From: a virus
Taxonomy: Duplodnaviria > Heunggongvirae > Uroviricota > Caudoviricetes
Length of the DNA stretch: 11,712 nucleotides
Direction: 5' to 3' (one strand)
Virus record (IMG/VR): IMGVR_UViG_3300000228_000007
Positions 1 through 11,712 of the stretch are shown here, piece after piece. The notes under the pieces are model-generated. The model saw only the letters and a program-made list of their open reading frames with translations. It had not been told where the DNA came from and ran no database searches. A program made the position numbers and the translations under genes. Each line of letters starts with the position of its first letter. Position 1 is the first letter of the stretch.

Positions 1-120
1 ATTTTAGTAGAAGAACCTAAATATAATTGATATTTTTGAGAACTAATTGAAGAACAAAACGTAAATCCATATGAATATATAGATGCCGTAGATATATTAA
101 TTTATTCACTAACAAGATAA
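1..120 (+). CDS. Hypothetical protein, 3' part (5'-truncated by the window)
   Basis: Frame 1 open under code 25 (ILVEEPKYNGYFGELIEEQNVNPYEYIDAVDILIYSLTR), TAA 118-120, next ATG 3 nt later. A decayed paralog lies at 656-782. Confidence 0.6.
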
Positions 121-547
121 TATATGATTAATTTAAGACTTTTAAGACTTTTAATAGATGAACTATTAAAAATAGATGGTAACAAAAATATATTAGTGAT
201 GTCAAATACTGCTGATGCAGAAGATGAAGATTATGACATAACGTATGAAGCTCAAGAATTTGATTCTATAAAAATAAGTGATTTGTTAGTATTAATAAAA
301 AGATTTTCTGTCTCAAATATTAATATTATATGAAACTTTACAGATCCTAAATGATATAATGAAATTATGATTTGATTTGACGTTTGAGACAATGGAGATG
401 AGAGTATAACTTTATTTTTTTATTAAAAATTAAATATATGAAATCGGAGAATTTATAGATGTTATAGGATTATAATTATAAATATGAAGTAAAATTGAAT
501 ATATAATGTGCAATGGCGTAGATTTAGGATTCGTTTGAATAAGTAAC
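19..547 (+). repeat. Degenerate direct repeat, copy A (pairs with about 687-1243)
   Basis: 388-439 is identical to 1149-1200 (52 bp) and 498-547 to 1194-1243 (50 bp). Coding parts are highly similar with substitutions and indels. The 5' boundary is approximate and may extend outside the window. Confidence 0.9.
124..426 (+). CDS. Hypothetical protein, 100 aa; paralog of 786-1187 lacking 34 internal residues
   Basis: ATG 124 to TAA 424-426 with TGA read-through: MINLRLLRLLIDELLKIDGNK...GFDVGDNGDESITLFFY. Frame is conserved in both copies. Confidence 0.75.
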
Positions 548-586
548 ATGGAAAAAATTGAAAAAGAAAAAGGAATTACATTTTAA
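438..586 (+). pseudogene. Possible small gene remnant
   Basis: Protein-like pieces (EIGEFIDVIG / GSKIEYIMCNGVDLGFVGISNMEKIEKEKGITF) are broken by stops and apparent 1-nt losses. The 3' part recurs at 1202-1243. Confidence 0.35.
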
Positions 587-598
587 TTCCTTTTTCTT
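564..598. terminator. Intrinsic terminator-like hairpin, likely bidirectional
   Basis: Perfect 15-bp inverted repeat AAGAAAAAGGAATTA (564-578) / TAATTCCTTTTTCTT (584-598), 5-nt loop, at the end of repeat copy A. Confidence 0.8.
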
Positions 599-655
599 GA
601 TTATTTTACATATTTATATATGGTATAAATACCATTATTTTAATAACTTGAACTA

Positions 656-782
656 ATGATTAATAATCATAAAATATTAATAACGGAAAATATAACTAAA
701 TGATATTTTTGAGAATTAATACAAGAATAACAACATAATCCTTATGAAGATATGGATACTATTATATTCACTAACCAGATAA
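656..782 (+). pseudogene. Decayed paralog of the 1-120 gene
   Basis: MINNHKILITENITKGYFGELIQE then premature TAA 728-730, followed by NPYE. A later frameshift relative to copy A (...SLTR-TAA equivalent at 780-782). Confidence 0.6.
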
Positions 783-1243
783 TGTATGATTAATTTAAGA
801 CTTTTAAGAGACGAACTATTAAAAATAGATGATAATAAAGCTGTATTAGTAATGTCAAATACTACTAACGCAGAAGATGAAAATTATGACATAACGTATG
901 ATGCTGTCGCATATGATATGGATAAATGAGAATTATATCTAACTATAGCACCTGAATACGTATTAGAATATACATATGAAAATTATTTGAATTTTAATAA
1001 AAATAAACAAGAATTTGATTCTATAAAAATAAGTGATTTGTTAGCATTAATAAAAAGATTTTCTGTTTCAAATATTAATATTATATGAAACTTTACAGAT
1101 CCTAAAGATGAATGATATAATGAAATTATGACTTGATTTGAAGTTTGGGACAATGGAGATGAGAGTATAACTTTATTTTTTTATTAAAAATTAAATATAT
1201 AATGTGCAATGGCGTAGATTTAGGATTCGTTTGAATAAGTAAC
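687..1243 (+). repeat. Degenerate direct repeat, copy B
   Basis: See copy A. Carries 102 extra nt (906-1007) and lacks the 65 nt corresponding to 440-504. Confidence 0.9.
786..1187 (+). CDS. Hypothetical protein, 133 aa, apparently two related small modules
   Basis: ATG 786 to TAA 1185-1187 under code 25: MINLRLLRDELLKIDDNKAVLV...IKISDLLALIKRFSVSNINIIG...GFEVWDNGDESITLFFY. Confidence 0.8.
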
Positions 1244-1311
1244 GATGAAAATGCTTAAATGTTGAATATTGGAGGTGTTTGAATACTTTACATTGTAATA
1301 ATTAATAATAT

Positions 1312-1479
1312 ATGAAAATTTCAGAGCTTAAAGAATTAATAAATAAAATACCAGATGATTTTTATATAGTAGGATTTAGTCCGTATCCAAGCTATTGACC
1401 ACTTATTAAAGAAAATATAAGAGTAAATAAGAAAAAATTAGAAGTAACGATTTCATTAGTAGATCCCATAAATAATTAA
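1312..1479 (+). CDS. Small hypothetical protein, 55 aa, phage-like
   Basis: MKISELKELINKIPDDFYIVGFSPYPSYGPLIKENIRVNKKKLEVTISLVDPINN, TAA 1477-1479, 15 nt before the ligase ATG. Confidence 0.65.
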
Positions 1480-1494
1480 TAACTTACAACAAAA

Positions 1495-3162
1495 ATGTTA
1501 AAAATAACAAAAGAAAATTTAATATATTTACAAAATTTATTAATGGTAAATTTTACTATTGTAGATAATATAGATAAAATTTTTAATATCTACCATGAAA
1601 ATTATGGTTTTGCATTATCAAATGAAGATATTAATAGTATTATTAACTCTGATATTTCAATACTTTCAAACTTTGATAACTATGTATTTATTGAAAAGTC
1701 ATCATGATTAAAAGAAGATATTTTTAATATATGCGTAGAACGTAAAAAAATCTCCATAGGAGAGTGATTAGATAATTTTAACGGTTATGTATTAACATAC
1801 CATGATGACATACGTCTATGAGAAAAATTTAGAGATTTAGATATTTATGATAATAGTGGAAATTTATTAACATTAAATCAAAAAATAGTATTAATTTGAC
1901 ATATTGGAAAATTCATTCAAACAAATTTTTTCTTACAAATGTTTAGAAGTTTGTATATAAATGATTATGGTGTAATTATAAACTTATTTAATTTAAGATT
2001 TTATAATGAACATGAAATCATTAATATGGCAAACGATTGAGATTTACGTTGGTCAAAAATAATTAATGAATCTGGAGAGCTTACTCCGTTTTTTATGGAA
2101 AAGGTTGACTGACAAATGTTAATGTTATTTACGTATGACAACGTTACGTTTTTACAATCAAAAGGTGCTGTTACTACGATAGATCTTATAGATTTTGATA
2201 AAAATTGAATTTTTGGTTCAGTAGTTAAATTAATTTGAACTGATTGATTGTTATACCTTCAAAAAATGTCTCAAGAAAATAATGATATAGTATATCATTT
2301 TGAACTTTTAGCAACAGTAAATCAAGTTGTGCAAGAATATTCAGAACCATGATTATTTTTGATTGGTTGAAGATATATAAATTCTTTCAGAAACTGTATT
2401 GATTTTTCAAACGAGGAAACTTTTATGAATACATATTATTGAATTTATGATTGAAAGTATATTACTAAGATAGTATTTTCAAGCGATGAAAATATTATCT
2501 ATGATAAAATTAAAAAAACTCGTGCTATTGATGATGATTATGATAACTACGTTATTGAGTGATATGTTATGGTAAAATGATACTTATTTACAAAAATAAA
2601 AAACTATCAATACTTCATAGCAAAATTAATAAAATCCTTTTCCTTAAGCAAATCAAAAGAAACCATTAATGGAATAAAAAATGTATTACAAAAAGACGCT
2701 AATTTTTTAACAATACAAACAAACTTTTTAATGGATAGTGAAAATATATATGATTCAAATTTAATTAATGAAAGTTTAGATAAAGTTTCTACATTAAAGC
2801 AAAATAGAAAACTTAAAATATCTTATACGAGATTTATTAGATATTTAGCAAAGCATATATCAAGAGATTTAGTTGATGATATAATATTTTCAATAAAGAA
2901 TAATAAAAACAAGTTTATAGAAATCTATAAAGATTTCTTAATTGAATCACTTATTGATGTTATAGCATGAATGCTTACTTCAGACCAGGAAGAAATATCG
3001 GCATTGCATAATATACTTGGTGTTGGAGGTGAACTTGATATAAGTTCAGATAACTTAAAATCAGATGTAAAAAATATCATATACGAGAAACTTAACTTTG
3101 ATGAAAATTCATATTTCATAAATAAAGTAAAAATCGTAATCAACGATATTAAATCTATTTAA
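1495..3162 (+). CDS. RNA ligase, T4 Rnl1 family, 555 aa
   Basis: One 1668-nt ORF under code 25. Ordered ligase motifs: I MEKVDG (K at 2101-2103), Ia QSKG, III HFELL (E 2302-2304), IV IEGYV (2554-2568), V TKIK (2590-2601). IV-V spacing matches T4 Rnl1 (EGYV...KIK). Confidence 0.85.
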
Positions 3163-3179
3163 TAATTAACATATATATT

Positions 3180-3614
3180 ATGGAAATAACAGATATTAAA
3201 AAAGAAATTATACAGTTAATTCATTCTTGTATGAATAAAGAATTAACACCATGAACTTTAGTAGAAACTAATGAAATTTATAAAAATGTAAAAATTACAG
3301 AAATGAAAATTTTTGCATGATACAATGCTATTTGATGACATTATGTTAAAGACTTAGATAATTTCGACTTTTATAATAGTGATTATGAAATATGAAAGAA
3401 TAGTTATCGTATTATTGGATACTATGATATAATGGCTGTGTTAAAATATATAAAATTAAAATGATTAGAAATATGTTTTATTGATGAAGGGATTTTAGTA
3501 TATTGAACTAAGTCAGGACATGATGATTATTGAATTATTCCATTTAAACCACTTCATTTATATACCGAAGAAGAAGATAAAAATTTGTTAGATTTATTAA
3601 TTAAAATTAAATAA
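3180..3614 (+). CDS. Hypothetical protein, 144 aa
   Basis: ATG 3180 to TAA 3612-3614, many TGA-Gly, ends KPLHLYTEEEDKNLLDLLIKIK. Tight operon spacing. Confidence 0.8.
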
Positions 3615-3615
3615 T

Positions 3616-3954
3616 ATGTTAGATTTAAATAAAGAACAAAATCAAAAATACATAGAATTGTCTTTGGAGATTTGAAAATTACAATCAGAATTGGATAATG
3701 AAAATATTTGACAATTATATATTGCCCATGAAAGTGAATATAATAATTATTTATATGTAGGTGCTGTTGATACAACTAAATTAACAACAGAAACGTTTAA
3801 TCTTTCAACGTTAGAAAAAGAAATATATAAAAATGTCTTACAACTTCACTGACCAGACTATGCTGAAGGTTGACTTCACTATGAAATCAGAAAGTTTAAA
3901 TATGATGAAGTTATTTTTAGTGGATATTATTATAATGATAGTAATGAAGATTAA
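3616..3954 (+). CDS. Hypothetical protein, 112 aa
   Basis: ATG 1 nt after the previous TAA, open to TAA 3952-3954: MLDLNKEQNQKYIELSLEIG...GYYYNDSNED. Confidence 0.75.
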
Positions 3955-3973
3955 TATATAATTAATAACAAAT

Positions 3974-4363
3974 ATGATACAATTAACGTATAACTGAATT
4001 AAAGTTCCTGAAAACTTTAATCCAAAAATGATAATTTCCGCATTTGATAACCCAATTGATTATAATAAGGTTGATAAATATACGGAAGATATGCTAAATG
4101 AATATGATTTTGAATATACATTTCCTCCTATAATGTGATTCCCATTAATTATAGATGAAGATATGGTCGATAATGAATATTTTTTGACTGGAGAACCAGT
4201 TTCAGAAGATGATATTTGAAAAATATGTTGGTATGTTACCGATTGACACCATAGAGTTTTATCAGCAATAAACGCTAATAAAAAATATATTGATGTAGAA
4301 CTTGATAGATCTACTATAACAATAGAAAGTGAATTAGAATTATTTGACAAAATTTATAAATAA
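3974..4363 (+). CDS. ParB/sulfiredoxin-like fold protein, 129 aa
   Basis: FPPI strand followed by WYVTDGHHRVLSA (4229-4267), the hhhDGxHR motif of ParB/Srx. TAA 4361-4363. Confidence 0.75.
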
Positions 4364-4464
4364 GGTATATATTGATATGTGTCAGAAAATTAATTAAATT
4401 ATTATAATATAAAAATATGATAGATTTTATACATAATATATGGAAAATTTCTTTTAATTGAGTA

Positions 4465-4513
<49 letters not shown>

Positions 4514-4631
4514 GATGAAATACTAAGACTAAATATATGCATTCGTATATTTCAGTCGATAATTGTAAATAAACTTAAATTTATTGATAATTATATTATT
4601 ATATCATCATTAGATAATTAACTATTTTATA

Positions 4632-6043
4632 ATGATATTAGATATAGATATTGTAGGTAAAAACATAACAAATAAAAATATAGATTGAATAGTTTCAACG
4701 CCATTATATATATCAAAATATATGGTTGAAAATTCAAATATTGACATAAATACAACAATAATAGATCCGTGTGTTTGACATGGGGTCTTTCCACTAGCAA
4801 TACTATTTTATATAGAAAAAAATATAAGTTATCTTGAGACGAATTATATGACTATTTTATTAATAAAGTAACTTGTCATGATATTAATGAAGAGTCGTTA
4901 GAAAGTTTTTTTTTATTATTAATTGAGTTTTTCAAATTAAGAAATGTAATAAAAGTTAAAAACGACTTTAAAAATATAATATTACAGGACTTCTTGTTTA
5001 ATGAATGTAATCAGAAATATGATTTATGCATATGAAATCCTCCATATATTAGAACTAAAAAAATAGAAGAAAGTTATCTTAAAAGATTAAGAAAATCATA
5101 TAAAACTTGTAAATCTTGAAATATTGATATTTATTATGCCTTTTTTGAAAAAGCAATATTAGTTGCAAATCGTGTTGTTTATATAACACCTAATTCACTC
5201 CTTTTAAATAATTCGGCAAAAGAGACAAGAAATATTATAAAGACTACTGGAATAGAATTTCTTATAGATTTTAAGGATTATAAAGTTTTTGAATGAATTT
5301 GAGCATATTGTTTAATTATTTCATTAAATAGTGAAAAAATAGATAAAAAAACAATCTTATATAGTAGTTCATTAGATTCAGAATTTATAAAAACAAATAT
5401 AAATGATATTTTTATTACAAAAAAGAATAATCATAATATAGAAATTTATAGCGGTATTGCAACACTTGCTGATAGTTTATATTCTATTAAGTTATTAAAT
5501 GGCAATTATTATACTAAAAATAATATAGAAATAGATAAAGAACTTATTGTACCTTTATATAAGTTAACAAAATTTAATCATAATTGATATATATTGTTTC
5601 CATATACAAACAAGAAAATATTAGATTTAGAAATATTATCAGAAAAATATACAAAAACATATAATTATTTATTATCAATTAAAAACGTATTAAATAATAG
5701 AGATAAGTGAAAAACGGAAAAATATGATAGTTGGTATGCTTATGGAAGAAAGCAATGATTTAATAATATAAAATGAGAGAAGGTTATTATAATACCGAAA
5801 ATGATTTCAAATAATAATAAACCGTTCGAAGTAGAATTAAATTCTCTATATGCATGACATAAACAATTTTTATTTACATCATGATATATCATAAGTTGAT
5901 ATACAGATTTAGAAAAATTGTTTATATTATCTGATATATTTATTGATAGTTGTAGAAAATATTGAAAAGCATTTCCTTGAAAGAACTTTTCATACTATTC
6001 TATTTCTAAAACAATACTTGATACTATTTTTTCAAACATTTAA
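4632..6043 (+). CDS. Orphan N6-adenine DNA methyltransferase (gamma class, Eco57I/TaqI-like), about 470 aa, with a frameshift at the A7 run 4816-4822
   Basis: Motif I IIDPCVGHGVF (4758-4790) is in the ATG-4632 frame, which stops at TAA 4869-4871. The -1 frame carries HDIN, motif IV CIGNPPY (5027-5047), YITPNS, SGIATLAD, RDKG and WYAYGRKQG, ending TAA 6041-6043. One more A restores a single ORF. Confidence 0.85.
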
Positions 6044-6152
6044 TCAATTTAAAAATGAAGTAAATATACTTGTCTTAATTGAAAAAAATTTCCCTAAAAG
6101 AAAAAACATCAGTGGTGATGGATGAAAACTTTATATAATAACAATAAATAAC

Positions 6153-6431
6153 ATGGCTAAATGATATTCAAATGACGCAATTTTAGATTGATTAAACGAA
6201 TCATATTGTTCGTTAGTTAATTCATATTGAGTAAAAAAAGATTTATTTATAAAATTAACTATAAAAGAAAAATTAGATATAATTAATGATATTGTAAATT
6301 ATGCAAATAACGGTATAGCACACTTGTATGACGTTAAAGATAAATGAATGATTATAAATTTTACATTAAACTGGTTTAAAGATCAAATTGATATAAACCA
6401 TTTTGAAATACTTAAATCAAAGTTAGTATAA
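6153..6431 (+). CDS. Hypothetical protein, 92 aa or longer (start uncertain)
   Basis: ATG 6153 to TAA 6429-6431. The frame is open upstream; ATG 6055 would give MKVNILVLIEKNFPK... if one A were added. Confidence 0.65.
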
Positions 6432-6438
6432 ATCCAAT

Positions 6439-6472
6439 AAAACTCCTTTTTATTAAATAATAGGAGTTTTTT
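6439..6472 (+). terminator. Intrinsic terminator
   Basis: AAAACTCCT (6439-6447) / AGGAGTTTT (6462-6470) stem followed by a T tract, 7 nt after the TAA at 6431. Confidence 0.7.
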
Positions 6473-6576
6473 GTTTCTTTATTTGATAATATATTACTAT
6501 AATGATACAGAATATACTGTATATAATACTGAAGTAATGCTTATGGATAACTATAAAAAAAGATATTATAAATAAA

Positions 6577-7452
6577 GTGAAAATATATCTTAGTAAAAAT
6601 GAAAATAAATATAAACTTGCTTTAATATTTGTTTTTTTTAGTTTGTTTATATGAACATTTTTACATGAAGACACATATATGAATTTCTTTATCAATATGA
6701 TATTAACTTGAGATTATTCATTGATAATGTTGCTACCTATAATTATTATTATATGGATTTCTTATGATTCAATAAATAAAAAATTATTTTACGTTTCGGT
6801 CAATTTAGCATTTAGTATTATATCACTATTATACATGTCGTTTTTATACTTAACTCATAAATATGAAAACTTTTGATATATGTTTTTTATTATTTTTATA
6901 ACAATAACTCTTATGTGAATATTTTCCTTTCTTGAAAAACTAAAAACAAACAAATCAGATCCCGTTAAAGAAAATGTATTAAAAAATACACAAGATGAAA
7001 TTATTGAAAATCAAAATCCTATTGAATTGGAAAATTTAGTAAATAATGATACTGATTTATTGTCTGATTGAATTATTGACAACCCTATAATTGAGACTAT
7101 TGAAGACAATGATACTATTATAGAAATATCAAATGAAGATAATATTGAAACTGAATTAACAAAAGATTCAGAATTAATAGAATTTTCTAATTCTAACGAT
7201 ATAGCTAATGATATAGAAGTTGTTGAAATTAAAGAAGATACGATAAAATCTCCATCGAAAATATTAATTAAAGAAAAATTAAATGAATTTAAGATTAAAT
7301 TACAGTCTTTAAGTTCAAAAGATTTGTTTGCATTAAAAGAAAAAATTACATGACTATTATTAAATAGTGAAAAACTTAACGAAGATCAAAAAAAACTGCT
7401 CCTTTTGGAAAAAGAGCATGTTATAGCAATATTAGCGGTTAATGAATTATAG
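6577..7452 (+). CDS. Membrane protein, about 291 aa: roughly 4 N-terminal hydrophobic segments, acidic linker, helical C-terminus
   Basis: Open from GTG 6577 to TAG 7450-7452. Hydrophobic blocks within about 6619-6930, then a D/E/N/I-rich stretch. Alternative start ATG 6537/6543 needs removal of one A from the A7 run 6555-6561. Confidence 0.75.
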
Positions 7453-7806
7453 ATCTATATCAAAATCAATATCTGGAAGTGAAATATCTATATCAGGCAT
7501 TGAAATATCTGGTATAAGGTCTCCTATTCAGTCAAAGAATCAAGAACTATCAGTATCAGTATTATTTTCAGAGGATGTAGGACTATGTAGTATTAAATCT
7601 GAAATTCAGGCAACGGCTTCGTCAGAATCAATAATATCGTCTTCTTCATTGTTTTCGTTATTATCTTCTTGAGGCTTACATTCCTCACAAACGTAAATAA
7701 TATTTTCGTTATGATAGTCTGGATCTAATGGAGATATTTCCATAAAATTAATACCACACTCATTACAATAAATCTTTTTAACTTCATTAACATTAATATT
7801 TGTCAT
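7447..7806 (-). CDS. CxxC-CxxC Zn-finger protein with very acidic tail, 119 aa
   Basis: C14NEC17 and C40EEC43; continues through TGA 7606-7608 to TAA 7447-7449; ends GFFDGIGDLIPDISMPDIDISLPDIDFDIDL. Confidence 0.75.
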
Positions 7807-7888
7807 AGATTATATAATTAGTAAATATATAGTTATATGATAATTATATTATTTGAAAAATTAAATTTTTAAAACATAACTATTAAAA

Positions 7889-8338
7889 ATGACTATTAAA
7901 GAAATAATACCTAAGGTAAATAAAAGTATCATAATTATATGATCTTGTGGAACATGAAGAACAACTATTGTTAATGAGTTAGTTGAAAACGTTAGTGATA
8001 TAAAATACTTTGTTGATATAGAAAGTCTTTTACTATTAAAAAATGAAGATATAGTAGTTGTGATTGTTGAATTAAACTTTAATGAAGAAGAAGTAAAAAA
8101 AATTGTTTCATTATTAAAAGAATCTAATTCTTGAAAAAGTAATTTGAAGTTTATAATTGTAACATTTTTTAGAAATGTAAATTCCGAACTTGTATATGAA
8201 AAATATAAAGATATTAGAGATAATTGTGAAATAGAAATACTTACTAATACTGATGTCATTTCAGAAAGTATAGAAAAAAGAGTATTAAACTTTAAAAGAA
8301 AAATTATATTTAAACAAGAACAAAAAATTATAATATAA
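7889..8338 (+). CDS. Small P-loop NTPase-like protein, 149 aa, Walker A Lys replaced by Arg
   Basis: SIIIIGSCGTGRTT (motif 7940-7966), later hydrophobic strand VVVIVE. TAA 8336-8338. Confidence 0.7.
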
Positions 8339-8342
8339 AATT

Positions 8343-8370
8343 TTGATAAAAATAATTTTATTATTATAAT
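8343..8370 (+). promoter_or_regulatory. Candidate sigma70-type promoter
   Basis: TTGATA 8343-8348, 16 nt, TATAAT 8365-8370, upstream of ATG 8408. Weak because such hexamers are frequent at this AT content. Confidence 0.4.
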
Positions 8371-8407
8371 AATATTGTATATAATTTATTTATTAAACTT
8401 TTTGAAT

Positions 8408-8602
8408 ATGTTAAAGAACCAATTAATAATCATTAGAGATTTTGAACAAATGATGGTTTGATCTGTTTTACCAAATACTACTAATGAAAAAGCATGGGAC
8501 TATTGAAATGAAAAATTTCCATTATTTGATTTTGATGTTTTGGAATTTGATACCATGAATGATTTAAATGAATTTCTAATGGGTGAATTACCTAAAATGT
8601 AA
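8408..8602 (+). CDS. Small hypothetical protein, 64 aa
   Basis: MLKNQLIIIRDFEQMMVGSVLPNTTNEKAWDYGNEKFPLFDFDVLEFDTMNDLNEFLMGELPKM, TAA 8600-8602. Confidence 0.65.
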
Positions 8603-8622
8603 TAAATAACTATAATTTTCCT

Positions 8623-9195
8623 ATGAAAAAAATATTGAAATATTATGAAAATGAACTTGGACTAAATTTTATCAAGATTTAGATACATGAAAGTATTATT
8701 TACAAACAAAAGATTATATAAAAGAACTTTATGATGTAAATAATTGGTTTAGAAGAGGGGCGTTTTATCAACATTTTCCTAATTTGATATATATTGAATC
8801 AACTGAAGATTGACTTTCAAAAATATATGAAACAGAACTTCTATATCCATTAAAAGCTGAAAATACAATAGCTTGGAAGCAATATAAATATCTAAAGGGT
8901 TGTTTGGATCAAGCATATGATGATTATCCTTTACAATATTCATATAATGAAATTGATAGAATGTGGTGTTTCTTTAATAAACTAAAAGATAATAATATTG
9001 CTCAGGATGGAACAGAGGTTATATCTAAAACGATGTTATGTGAATTAAGTGAGACCATTCGATTGAATATGTAATTATACATCTCGCCCAATGATAGAAT
9101 TATCACCAAGAAACTTGAAAGTAGATTGAAATTGAAATATAATACTGATTAATATATTATTTGATAGAGAATTATTACTAAATAAAAATAAGTAA
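8623..9195 (+). pseudogene. Minimal protein-kinase-like fold gene, about 190 aa, interrupted by two frameshifts
   Basis: Reconstruction: MKKNIEILGKGTWTKFY (Gly-loop-like; needs +1 A at A7 8626-8632), HFPNLIYI, YETELLYPL, then after removing one base near 9060, DGICNY...IELSPRNLKVDGNGNIILINILFD (catalytic-loop-like), TAA 9193-9195. Confidence 0.55.
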
Positions 9196-9232
9196 AAAAA
9201 AGAGAGTTATTTTAAAATGATAACTCTTTTTT
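9194..9232. terminator. Bidirectional intrinsic terminator between convergent units
   Basis: AGAGTTAT (9203-9210) / ATAACTCT (9220-9227) stem, flanked by an A tract on the left and a T tract on the right. Confidence 0.75.
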
Positions 9233-9240
9233 ATTATATT

Positions 9241-9768
9241 TTATACAAGATTTATATCCAATCACATATTTTTGAAAGAAATCAAGCATTCAGCAACTCC
9301 TTTTGCGTCATCAACTGGATTGTGCGTATGTTTTGTAAAAGAATATTTTTTCTTCCAATCATTTTTTACTTTCATTGTCTTTTCCATTCAACAGTATAAA
9401 TCTCCTACTCTTATTCAAGAGTGTCAAAACGGATTTTCTCCTACATATTTATGAAAATAATAATTTATAAATTGCCAATCAAAAGCCAAGTTGTCTGATG
9501 CAAAAACATTAGGTCAAATAGAATTTCTTTCAACCCATTTGAAAAACTTTAACATTACATCTTCAGAATTATTAAATTGTAAATGTTCTTCTCTTGAAAA
9601 TCAAGATATAGATAGGGCTACTGGATCAAAATTATCAGTAATTGGAGCAACTTCTCCATAAAAAGTTCTTGTAAGAGTATCTTCTACTATTACGGCTCAA
9701 AAAGAAACCATTGAATATAATCATGGGCAAGGTCAATCGGCTTCAACGTCTACTACTATATAGGACAT
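9241..9768 (-). CDS. DEDDh 3'-5' exoribonuclease-like protein (Rv2179c/RNase AS-like), 175 aa
   Basis: YIVVDVEADGPCPGLYSMVSFGAV (Exo I), SDNLAFDWQFINYYF (Exo II), NPFGHSG, HTHNPVDDA (Exo III). ATG 9768 to TAA 9241-9243. Confidence 0.9.
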
Positions 9769-9772
9769 ATAT

Positions 9773-10126
9773 TTATTGTTTATTATTTAATAATAAAATG
9801 AATTCATCCATCATTATTCTTGGTATATAATCATTCGGCCACAATTTTCAATGAAAACGTAGATAATTAAAAGTATTTACAACCTTTTTATATCTCAATG
9901 AATAATCATCAGAATAATGAGATATTTTTTCAATATCATAAAATAGAACTTCAATTAATTCTATACGATCTTTGTAATTATAAAATACATATCTTAATGC
10001 CTGAAAATCTTGGACTGTTACTATTCTTTCCAATAAATCATTCAAACTTAAAATTTTACCACGCCAACAAACAGTCGGATAATGATCCTCCATATACTTA
10101 AAGAATATGCTATCATAATTATTCAT
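9773..10126 (-). CDS. Hypothetical protein, 117 aa
   Basis: Track ORF 9848-10126 extended through TGA to TAA 9773-9775 (...FHGKLWPNDYIPRIMMDEFILLLNNKQ). Gaps of 10 nt and 4 nt to its neighbours. Confidence 0.75.
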
Positions 10127-10136
10127 AGTTGTATAG

Positions 10137-11087
10137 TTATTTTTGAAAAACGTTTATAAGATAATTTATTAATTCAATATTTGAATGTTTTAACCATAAT
10201 GATTTAATTTTTGGATAAAATGCGTACTCATTTCAATGATCGTAATTTGACTTTTCTTTTAATGCATTTATCAGCATATCAATATTTATTTTATTAGAAA
10301 GATAGATTATATCATCAATATCACGTTCATTTAAACGCTTTAATTTATTTGCAACTATATCCTCATCTGATGCTTTTGGAATAGTAACTCAATCCAAATT
10401 TACATATTCATATTTTGAATTAAAATTAGGCATCCAGTCTAATTTAATTGAGGCTATTCAATATCAAGGAAATTCAAACGTTATATCTTTCCAATTAGCG
10501 TTTTCATTTACAAAACACCCATTTTCAGTTAAAAAAGTTATTATAAAATCCGCCGTATTTTCAATTTCTCATAAAAGAATACCCTGGTCTACAGTATTAT
10601 GGTAAAATGAAAAATCTAAATCTAATGAAAATCTAATATAATCTTGTCATGATAAATTATCTTTTATCAACAACGAAGTTCAACCTGTAAAAAGAACTTC
10701 ATTAGATATAAATGATGTATTTTTAAAGAAAAATTTAACACCTTCAATTAATGCTTTTTTATGTATTATTTGTTTTTTATCATCATACACTATTTTGGGT
10801 ATAACTTCATTAGCATAATCATATTGAAGAAATTTATCATCTATAAAATCAGACTCATTACTTGTAAGAAAATTTTTATTAATATAATTAAATATATCTT
10901 CATGCGTAACAAAATTATCATTTCAAAAACGTATATTCATTGTGTCTTCTAACTCTTTTATTGAAAACACATAAATATAATCCATAAATGAATTGATATT
11001 ATCTTCTGATATTTTGTAATTATAATCTACATTTCAATTTATAGAAATATAAATATAATTATTCTCTTTTATGAAATAAATTTTCAT
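10137..11087 (-). CDS. AbiEii/AbiGii (MenT-like) nucleotidyltransferase, 316 aa, with long N-terminal extension
   Basis: VLFTGGTSLL (GG at 10680-10685), RFSLDLDFS, and C-terminal EDIVANKL...RDIDDIIYL. ATG 11087 to TAA 10137-10139, uninterrupted under code 25. Confidence 0.8.
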
Positions 11088-11152
11088 AGTAATATATTAA
11101 GTGATATTAATTATAATCAATAATACGTAAAAAATGAAAAAAATCAAAAAGA

Positions 11153-11368
11153 TTATCTATTATTTTTTTTCCATTTTCTAAATTCTTCCAATTCTTTATT
11201 GCTTATGTATTCTTCATATTTTTCTTTTGCATATTTTCATACTACGGCTAATCCAGTTCAAACTAAAACAACTTTTCAAACAGTAGTTTTTAATGCTGTT
11301 GAAATAACTTTACCAACTACAATAGAGCAAACTGCTTTTTTAGCAATATTTAAAAGTTCAGTATTCAT
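11153..11368 (-). CDS. Small hydrophobic/amphipathic protein, 71 aa
   Basis: MNTELLNIAKKAVCSIVVGKVISTALKTTVGKVVLVGTGLAVVGKYAKEKYEEYISNKELEEFRKWKKNNR, TAA 11153-11155. Confidence 0.7.
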
Positions 11369-11447
11369 AATTTATAAGTTAAATGTTAATATATTAAATA
11401 TATTAATTTTTTGAAAATAATCAATAAGAAAATTGAATATTTTAGTA

Positions 11448-11712
11448 TTGTTACCTATAAATAAATAGTAGAAGATTTTACTATAGCAAGAAAAAATAGA
11501 GATTTGAAACTTGCTAATACTATTGGAAATATCAAGACTAAACTTTTGATAATTAAAAAAAAGAAAAAACTGTTACTGCTACTCAATCAGTAAAAGTAAT
11601 TAAAGATGAAATAGTCTCTCTTAACTCAACTATTAACTTTGTTTGAATAAAGGAAATTCTTAAATCAGAAGCTCTTATAGAGAAAAAATTTTTTGAGCAA
11701 TACTTACCGGAA
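11448..11712 (+). pseudogene. GatB/YqeY-like protein, frameshifted, 3'-truncated by the window
   Basis: IVEDFTIARKNRDLKLANTIGNIKTKLL (from 11465) joins EKTVTATQSVKVIKDEI...EKKFFEQYLPE if one A is added to A8 11555-11562. Pattern resembles YqeY (D..AMKAKD...YLPEQ). Start at TTG 11448 needs a further +1 A near 11463. Confidence 0.6.

Follow-up and report, generated by a model that had tools for sequence, protein, structure and literature searches.

The 11,712-nucleotide stretch of DNA described here (the window; IMG/VR record IMGVR_UViG_3300000228_000007, classified as Caudoviricetes) carries genes in which TGA is abundant in frame. It raises two questions: what TGA encodes, and whether the DNA comes from a virus. 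An initial annotation, made from the letters alone, proposed a glycine meaning for TGA in the genes of either strand and, as the source of the DNA, a large phage or prophage with a host sharing this code. Sequence comparisons confirm that the window reads TGA as glycine on both strands, i.e. uses genetic code 25, the established code of Gracilibacteria and Absconditabacteria. The viral assignment did not hold up, and the window is probably an accessory-rich piece of the chromosome of an uncultured code-25 bacterium from sulfidic cave biofilms.

Genetic code of the window

Under code 11 the window contains 19 open reading frames (ORFs) of at least 60 amino acids (aa), the longest of which has 132 aa. 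With TGA as a sense codon, ORFs of 555, 452, 316 and 291 aa appear, and the coding density obtained by greedy selection is 0.80, as against 0.28 under code 11. A code-11 annotation thus misses nearly every gene, as had been anticipated. Codons were counted in 17 accepted genes, 12 on the plus strand (124–9074) and five on the minus strand (7447–7806 and 9241–11368). These contain 93 in-frame TGA codons among 3048, with at least one in every gene on both strands, in addition to 47 GGN and 17 TGG codons; 15 gene ends are TAA and one is TAG. Read as glycine, TGA is the main glycine codon, accounting for about two thirds of all glycine codons in the window genes, and the resulting composition is 4.6% glycine and 0.56% tryptophan. 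TGA also encodes the glycine of catalytic motifs in five unrelated enzymes, which are encoded as follows.

1495..3162, plus strand: 555-aa protein; nucleotidyltransferase core of Rnl1 RNA-ligase type at about residues 197–376, with long extensions on both the N- and C-terminal sides; 16 TGA, including the glycines of KxDG (2110–2112) and EGYV (2560–2562).
3974..4363, plus strand: 129-aa protein with a possible ParB/Srx-like nuclease fold (weak assignment); TGA in the DGHHR motif (4244–4246).
4632..6043, plus strand: N6-adenine DNA methyltransferase, type II gamma-class, Eco57I family (PF07669, 80.5 bits, cut-off 25.3); TGA in motif I (4776–4778) and GNPPY (5033–5035).
7889..8338, plus strand: 149-aa P-loop NTPase with AAA_18 and nSTAND3 matches obtained only when TGA is glycine; TGA in Walker A (7940–7942 and 7955–7957).
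9241..9768, minus strand: 175-aa DEDDh 3'-5' exonuclease (PDB 7t2s, E 2e-21; RNase_T, 31.6 bits); nine TGA, including the glycine of DVEADG (9733–9735).

Four independent lines of comparison point to glycine as the residue encoded by TGA. Pfam bit scores were compared with TGA translated as glycine, masked as X, or translated as tryptophan. In that order, the methyltransferase scores 80.5, 71.3 and 69.8 bits and the exonuclease 31.6, 25.1 and 20.3 bits, while the P-loop protein scores 21.5 bits with glycine and has no match otherwise. The exonuclease passes the RNase_T cut-off with glycine at TGA and falls below it with tryptophan. When this minus-strand protein is aligned with PDB 7t2s, seven of nine TGA columns contain glycine and none contains tryptophan. 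The TGA preceding NPPY of the methyltransferase aligns with a glycine of CamA and TaqI. The same pattern is found in genes beyond the window on the longer contig that matches it (described below): 7 of the 15 TGA columns in DnaG are invariant glycine in five standard-code homologues, with no tryptophan, and column 203 of the DUF2202 protein, a TGA, is glycine in 33 of 35 sequences. In orthologue pairs from two related recoded contigs, TGA stands opposite TGA nine times, GGN ten times and TGG never. The proposals that TGA occupies conserved glycine positions on both strands, and that the code is table 25 rather than table 4, are both upheld by these comparisons. No tRNA genes were found in the window or in six context loci, and the available assemblies are 99.6–100% identical, with too few substitutions for a comparison of strains to bear on the code.

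A reading of TGA as tryptophan (code 4), in DNA from a Mollicutes-like organism or its phage, is scarcely conceivable. The GC content is indeed very low, and public gene callers used code 4 and recovered the same open frames. However, the tryptophan reading scores below the masked value for every Pfam match, and no TGA column aligns with tryptophan in PDB or standard-code homologues. Tryptophan would rise to 3.6% of residues and glycine drop to 1.5%, and the conserved tryptophan of the exonuclease, as aligned with PDB 7t2s, is separately encoded by TGG. The JGI and Logan public gene calls nevertheless translate TGA as tryptophan, and the exonuclease is without a Pfam family on record there. 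The public calls for the matching contig are consequently wrong at ~3% of residues, with a concentration of errors at catalytic glycines. This is another whole contig mis-annotated by code-11 and even code-4 pipelines, and the P-loop protein is invisible when tryptophan is used.

Matching contig and flanking genes

The window is 99.6–100% identical to the JGI contig TB_FS06_10DRAFT_1000015 (77,482 bp), where it occupies positions 39,583 down to 27,872, and identity is in the same range to Logan contigs of SRR1559230, SRR1560064 and SRR1560848. These runs derive from biofilms of the Frasassi and Acquasanta sulfidic caves, and FS06-10 designates the June 2006 sampling of Fissure Spring (Hamilton et al. 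2015, PMC4288042). The JGI record runs 27.9 kb past the window end. A 75.7-kb piece carrying the window overlaps the JGI contig partly and reaches beyond the opposite end of that record, and the two merge to ~104 kb. A circular element was considered and rejected, as a 764-aa gene past the window end is SbcC-like and not an FtsK-RusA fusion, and the two assemblies simply merge. The context covered in this analysis comprises positions 140–49,326 of the JGI contig (49 kb of the ~104 kb merged).

Upstream of the window are genes for a Ro60/TROVE protein (context locus L058, 871–2373) and, ~5.3 kb away, a three-domain DnaG primase (L058, 2971–4605). Downstream are a coiled-coil protein, a GSP-synthase-like ATP-grasp protein, DUF350, PrsW, a Na+/H+ exchanger and a PNK-like kinase, together with SbcD, Endonuclease_1, an MFS transporter, a cold-shock protein (CSD) and an ECF sigma factor. 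The sigma factor is accompanied by a putative anti-sigma partner and a DUF2202 protein, and SbcC and a C39-like peptidase are also found on this side. GC content is 0.20–0.27 across the 49 kb, with no step. The sigma/anti-sigma/DUF2202 triad is syntenic with two contigs of Candidatus Gracilibacteria metagenome-assembled genomes (MAGs), with identities of 55–56%, 35–40% and 50–52%, respectively, and the best matches to the DUF2202 protein in 185,579 species genomes are from Gracilibacteria.

Several genes of RNA-repair type flank the window. Besides the Rnl1-type ligase of the window itself, they comprise Ro60/TROVE and the PNK-like P-loop kinase (AAA_33, phrog_505), which adjoins a metallophosphoesterase scored as SbcD-like (L010, 2812–5590). 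Just past the window end, the GSP-synthase-like ATP-grasp gene (PF03738, 82.9 bits) is near those of DUF350 and PrsW (L001, 4615–5946 and 2012–2473). The pairing of ATP-grasp and DUF350 presumably resembles the E. coli yjf cluster.

The DnaG clade and its relatives

The DnaG of the matching contig is only 26–34% identical to the DnaG of 379 of the 401 sampled class genomes, and has no match at E<=1e-55 in 401 sampled phylum genomes. By comparison, four Gracilibacteria DnaGs are 37–55% identical among themselves. The contig DnaG belongs to a clade of eight recoded metagenomic sequences (support 100/100, identity 38–64%). This clade stands apart on a long branch of an unrooted tree in which a sister relation to the recoded Gracilibacteria is not resolved.

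The neighbours of dnaG are visible on four related recoded contigs of this clade. In one relative (L074) dnaG adjoins MutS, SecA and Tmk, and in a second (L075) it adjoins TK and MutS. On a third contig (L012, 168.6 kb) its neighbourhood includes TK, an ABC importer and a MetK fragment, and in a fourth (L073) it is near SbcC. The secA gene is of cellular type, and its product in L074 shares only 34–37% identity with the SecA of class genomes. The divergence of DnaG was considered as a sign of a mobile element and this was rejected, because the clade adjoins SecA, MutS and TK and because SecA is equally divergent. The low identity of DnaG thus reflects a divergent lineage and not a foreign gene. 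With no close DnaG among the ~800 sampled class and phylum genomes, the lineage looks unsampled in genome collections.

Relatives of the Rnl1-like gene, of a 133-aa orphan family from the window and of DUF2202 are found on L012 as well, no more than 17 kb from dnaG and at 31–57% identity, which indicates long residence of these genes near dnaG. The distance between dnaG and sbcC varies, being ~40 kb here and ~2 kb in L073.

The contig DnaG has none of the four zinc ligands, with YLSPFK...KDFSS replacing CPFH...CxxC. The loss is common to three relatives (51–64% identity), and more distant members of the clade retain the cysteines. Judged from these alignments, it is a conserved trait of the sub-clade rather than a one-off decay. 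The related recoded 168.6-kb contig also carries a TnpB-type gene (Cas12f1-like_TNB; L072, 5348–6892), which would mean that transposon-associated nucleases operate in this code-25 lineage.

Origin of the window

The reading that best accommodates these observations is a chromosomal one. The host would be an uncultured Gracilibacteria-type bacterium with 22–23% GC and TGA as glycine. In its chromosome the window would lie within a stretch of variable gene content, bordered by genes that the lineage conserves: dnaG on the upstream side, and sbcC and the ECF-sigma/anti-sigma/DUF2202 operon on the downstream side. It would encode accessory proteins of nucleic-acid repair, modification and defence type, along with lineage-specific orphans. 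The accessory set would consist of the Rnl1-type ligase, a frameshifted orphan methyltransferase, a possible ParB/Srx-like protein, the P-loop NTPase, and a trio of nucleotidyltransferase, 117-aa protein and exonuclease. A chromosome is favoured over a phage because of the synteny of the sigma-factor triad with Gracilibacteria MAGs, the position of the DnaG clade beside SecA and MutS, and the presence of old-resident genes near dnaG. Hypervariable regions are mentioned in the description of a closed code-25 Gracilibacterium genome (Sieber et al. 2019, PMC6851277). Direct observations cover the code, the gene map, the genes on either flank and, for relatives, the chromosomal setting of this DnaG clade. 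That the contig itself is part of a chromosome, and the window no mobile insert, is our inference.

Several observations weigh against a chromosomal origin. The 49 kb covered showed no ribosomal, tRNA, aminoacyl-tRNA synthetase or RNA polymerase gene. Many of the ORFs are orphans, among which divergent structural proteins may go unrecognised. The four nearest Gracilibacteria genomes lack homologues of SbcD, the Na+/H+ exchanger, the GSP-synthase-like protein and the window exonuclease, and 301 class genomes lack one of the Rnl1-like gene; these gaps mark the content as accessory. Phage-family relatives exist for Rnl1, phrog_192, phrog_6215, phrog_10415 and the SbcCD-like gp46/47, and the contig DnaG does not have the zinc ligands.

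Some of these points would suit the origin proposed initially, in which a code-25 host harbours a prophage, or is infected by a large lytic phage, with the same code; that origin is now quite improbable. Such phages and prophages of Gracilibacteria and Absconditabacteria have been described (Liu et al. 2023, mBio, PMC10746230), and a T4-type Rnl1, an exonuclease matching phrog_192, an orphan methyltransferase and many small orphans would be at home in one, as would the SbcCD-like, PNK-like and GSP-synthase PHROGs nearby and the arrangement of genes in long co-oriented blocks. However, neither Pfam nor PHROG yields a terminase, portal, capsid, tail or integrase match in the window or its 49-kb context. 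The sole matches in structural categories are both weak, one to a tail fibre (E 0.0034) and one to a small terminase (1.8e-5), the latter on a P-loop kinase. Neither megablast against GenBank phages nor an exact-pattern scan of IMG/VR gave a match. The same contig carries housekeeping and other cellular-type genes on the flanks of the window (DnaG, the MFS and Na+/H+ transporters, the ECF sigma operon syntenic with Gracilibacteria, and CSD), relatives have SecA and MutS next to a dnaG of this clade, and GC shows no step. Flanking housekeeping genes combined with missing viral hallmarks, which the initial annotation had named as evidence against a phage, are what the window and these 49 kb show. 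The same low probability covers a degraded prophage whose structural genes are no longer recognisable. A non-viral mobile element is also unlikely, whether a large plasmid, an integrative conjugative element, or an island (genomic or defence) that entered downstream of dnaG. The ~40 kb between dnaG and sbcC, compared with ~2 kb in L073, could reflect such an insertion. The content is accessory and defence-like (the methyltransferase, an AbiEii-like nucleotidyltransferase, an exonuclease matching a PADLOC effector, a ParB-like motif), and most of the genes tested are missing from the nearest Gracilibacteria genomes. Against this, no integrase, recombinase, relaxase or type IV secretion family was matched in the 49 kb covered, window included, and GC is uniform. 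Near dnaG in L012, a relative of 42–44% identity, there are likewise an Rnl1-like gene, a member of the 133-aa family and DUF2202, which points to old residents and not to a recent insert.

The chromosomal reading may be extended further, although only tentatively. The contig might represent a deep, unbinned, ultra-AT-rich lineage with TGA as glycine (DnaG at most 34% and SecA at most 37% identical to sampled Patescibacteria), one sub-clade of which is without DnaG zinc ligands. Its chromosome would carry an unusually dense set of RNA-end repair and tailing genes downstream of dnaG. This set would comprise Ro60 with Y-RNA candidates, the enlarged Rnl1-type ligase, the PNK-like kinase, and the nucleotidyltransferase and DEDDh exonuclease. 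If so, an organism whose decoding depends on a recoding tRNA could possess its own, cellular version of the tRNA-repair toolkit of phages. Both the code and code-25 phages were already known, and the finding itself is one more code-25 bacterial genome fragment. Its residual value is in the apparently unsampled lineage, the highly divergent Rnl1-type ligase and the clustering of RNA-repair genes on an apparent bacterial chromosome.

The Rnl1-type ligase

The 555-aa protein is confirmed at the level of sequence as a very divergent Rnl1-type ligase, in agreement with the initial annotation. In a tblastn search of a phage collection it matches T4-like Rnl1 genes only (E 3e-7), and hhalign aligns it with the Rnl1 of Morganella phage MP1 over motifs I–III (probability 94%, E 8.5e-8). 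It has no Pfam match, even at E 10, and a profile search of PDB gave nothing. Only three relatives were identified among 5.8 billion proteins, all from recoded metagenomic contigs. An AF2 model made from a 3-sequence alignment has a pLDDT of 47 and is too poor for a fold search. No members of the family were found in GTDB species genomes, IMG/VR or the 301 class genomes. These empty searches indicate that the family is rare, and say nothing on its origin.

Other genes of the window

The remaining features of the window are as follows.

124..426, plus strand: 100-aa orphan ORF, four TGA; tandem paralogue of 786..1187; no Pfam or PHROG match.
786..1187, plus strand: 133-aa orphan ORF, four TGA; no Pfam or PHROG match.
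3180..3614, plus strand: 144-aa orphan ORF, eight TGA; called as 103 aa by JGI.
3616..3954, plus strand: 112-aa orphan ORF, four TGA; no family match.
4465..4513, no strand: (AAT)16 microsatellite in the gap that precedes the methyltransferase gene.
6577..7452, plus strand: 291-aa protein, hydrophobic in its N-terminal half and acidic in the C-terminal one, six TGA; no family match.
7447..7806, minus strand: 119-aa acidic protein with a zinc-ribbon-like N-terminus (CxxC...CxxC), three TGA; weak matches to phrog_5602 (E 0.0048) and zinc-finger families.
8375..9074, plus strand: two small ORFs of 75 and 96 aa; sub-threshold Choline_kinase match (E 0.033).
9773..10126, minus strand: 117-aa orphan between the exonuclease and the nucleotidyltransferase, with gaps of 4 and 10 nt.
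10137..11087, minus strand: 316-aa AbiEii/DUF6036-type nucleotidyltransferase, nine TGA (DUF6036, E 9e-5; AbiEii, 1.5e-3).
11153..11368, minus strand: 71-aa small membrane protein with TGA as the glycines of a glycine zipper (phrog_7539, E 3.7e-4).

The proposed orphan adenine methyltransferase is well supported, as the Pfam match is accompanied by a match to PADLOC MTase_II (2e-48) and no restriction gene was seen beside it. Its N-terminal piece also matches phrog_3820. The gene is split in two frames near an A7 tract (4817–4823), with motif I in the frame 4632–4871 and GNPPY in the frame 4685–6043; the two overlap at 4685–4871. None of four other assemblies has an indel in the gene, so that the split is fixed in these assemblies, and no length variation suggestive of phase variation is seen among them. 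The methyltransferase could be a pseudogene, or could be expressed by frameshifting.

The other assignments made initially are more mixed. In the 129-aa protein, proposed as a solo ParB/Srx protein, the DGHHR motif is present and there is one weak PHROG match (phrog_1033, 'ParB-like', E 0.0045, residues 76–104); Pfam yields DUF1015 below threshold and no ParBc match. The proposed YqeY protein (PF09424) was not recovered: no window protein matches the family at a cut-off of E<=0.01, and the ten unassigned window proteins re-scanned at E<=10 do not match it either. In the P-loop NTPase the Walker A sequence is GSCGTGRTT (residues 18–26), in which both glycines encoded by TGA are retained and arginine takes the place of the usual lysine. 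The window has no Rfam match.

The tandem paralogues at 124–1187 include DNA segments that are 94–95% identical at a spacing of ~755 bp, with one copy at 1008–1200. The 133-aa ORF is 31.5% identical to a 149-aa ORF on the related ENA contig L012. The N-terminus of the 144-aa ORF varies between assemblies owing to a ~93-nt indel at 3208–3300, and the microsatellite has 33 nt fewer in the assemblies of JGI and SRR407177. Apart from these two features, the population is nearly clonal.

On the minus strand, the closely spaced genes for the nucleotidyltransferase, the 117-aa protein and the exonuclease (9241–11087) may form a module for defence or for tailing and trimming of RNA 3' ends. The exonuclease also matches phrog_192 and PADLOC PDLC00753 ('Effector, Exonuclease', 3e-36). 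The nucleotidyltransferase matches PADLOC AbiEii (4e-6), and all its scores are below or near the curated cut-offs.

Comparison with known systems

The exonuclease of this trio resembles both PDB 7t2s (E 2e-21, residues 3–129) and PDLC00753 (E 3e-36, whole protein), and retains the DEDDh motifs. Unlike in those systems, no cyclic-oligonucleotide synthase is recognised beside it, and its neighbour is instead the weakly scoring AbiEii/DUF6036-like nucleotidyltransferase. The window shares with the code-25 phages dense in-frame TGA and an almost complete lack of code-11 annotation. However, the prophages in that study were accepted on the basis of portal, tail, terminase or integrase genes, none of which was found here in 49 kb (Liu et al. 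2023, PMC10746230).

The closest resemblance is to the Gracilibacteria (BD1-5) and Absconditabacteria (SR1), with which the window shares TGA as glycine throughout, low GC, many orphans and variable gene content. The matching contig also conserves the order of the ECF sigma/anti-sigma/DUF2202 operon of Candidatus Gracilibacteria MAGs. It differs from the sampled genomes of the Gracilibacteria class in its DnaG (26–34% identical, without zinc ligands), in the SecA of a clade member (34–37%) and in a lineage GC of 22–23%.

The ligase resembles T4 Rnl1 (gene 63; gp0231 in Morganella phage MP1) in its core, which contains motif I (MEKxDG), an SKG segment and an FE motif III. Downstream of these are EGYV and KIK strings, which we take to be motifs IV and V of the T4 enzyme. 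It differs in length (555 aa, compared with 364 aa), in an N-terminus longer by ~196 residues, in the C-terminal half, and in falling below Pfam detection (PF09511). It differs also in its setting, since the gene is found near dnaG on an apparent bacterial chromosome.

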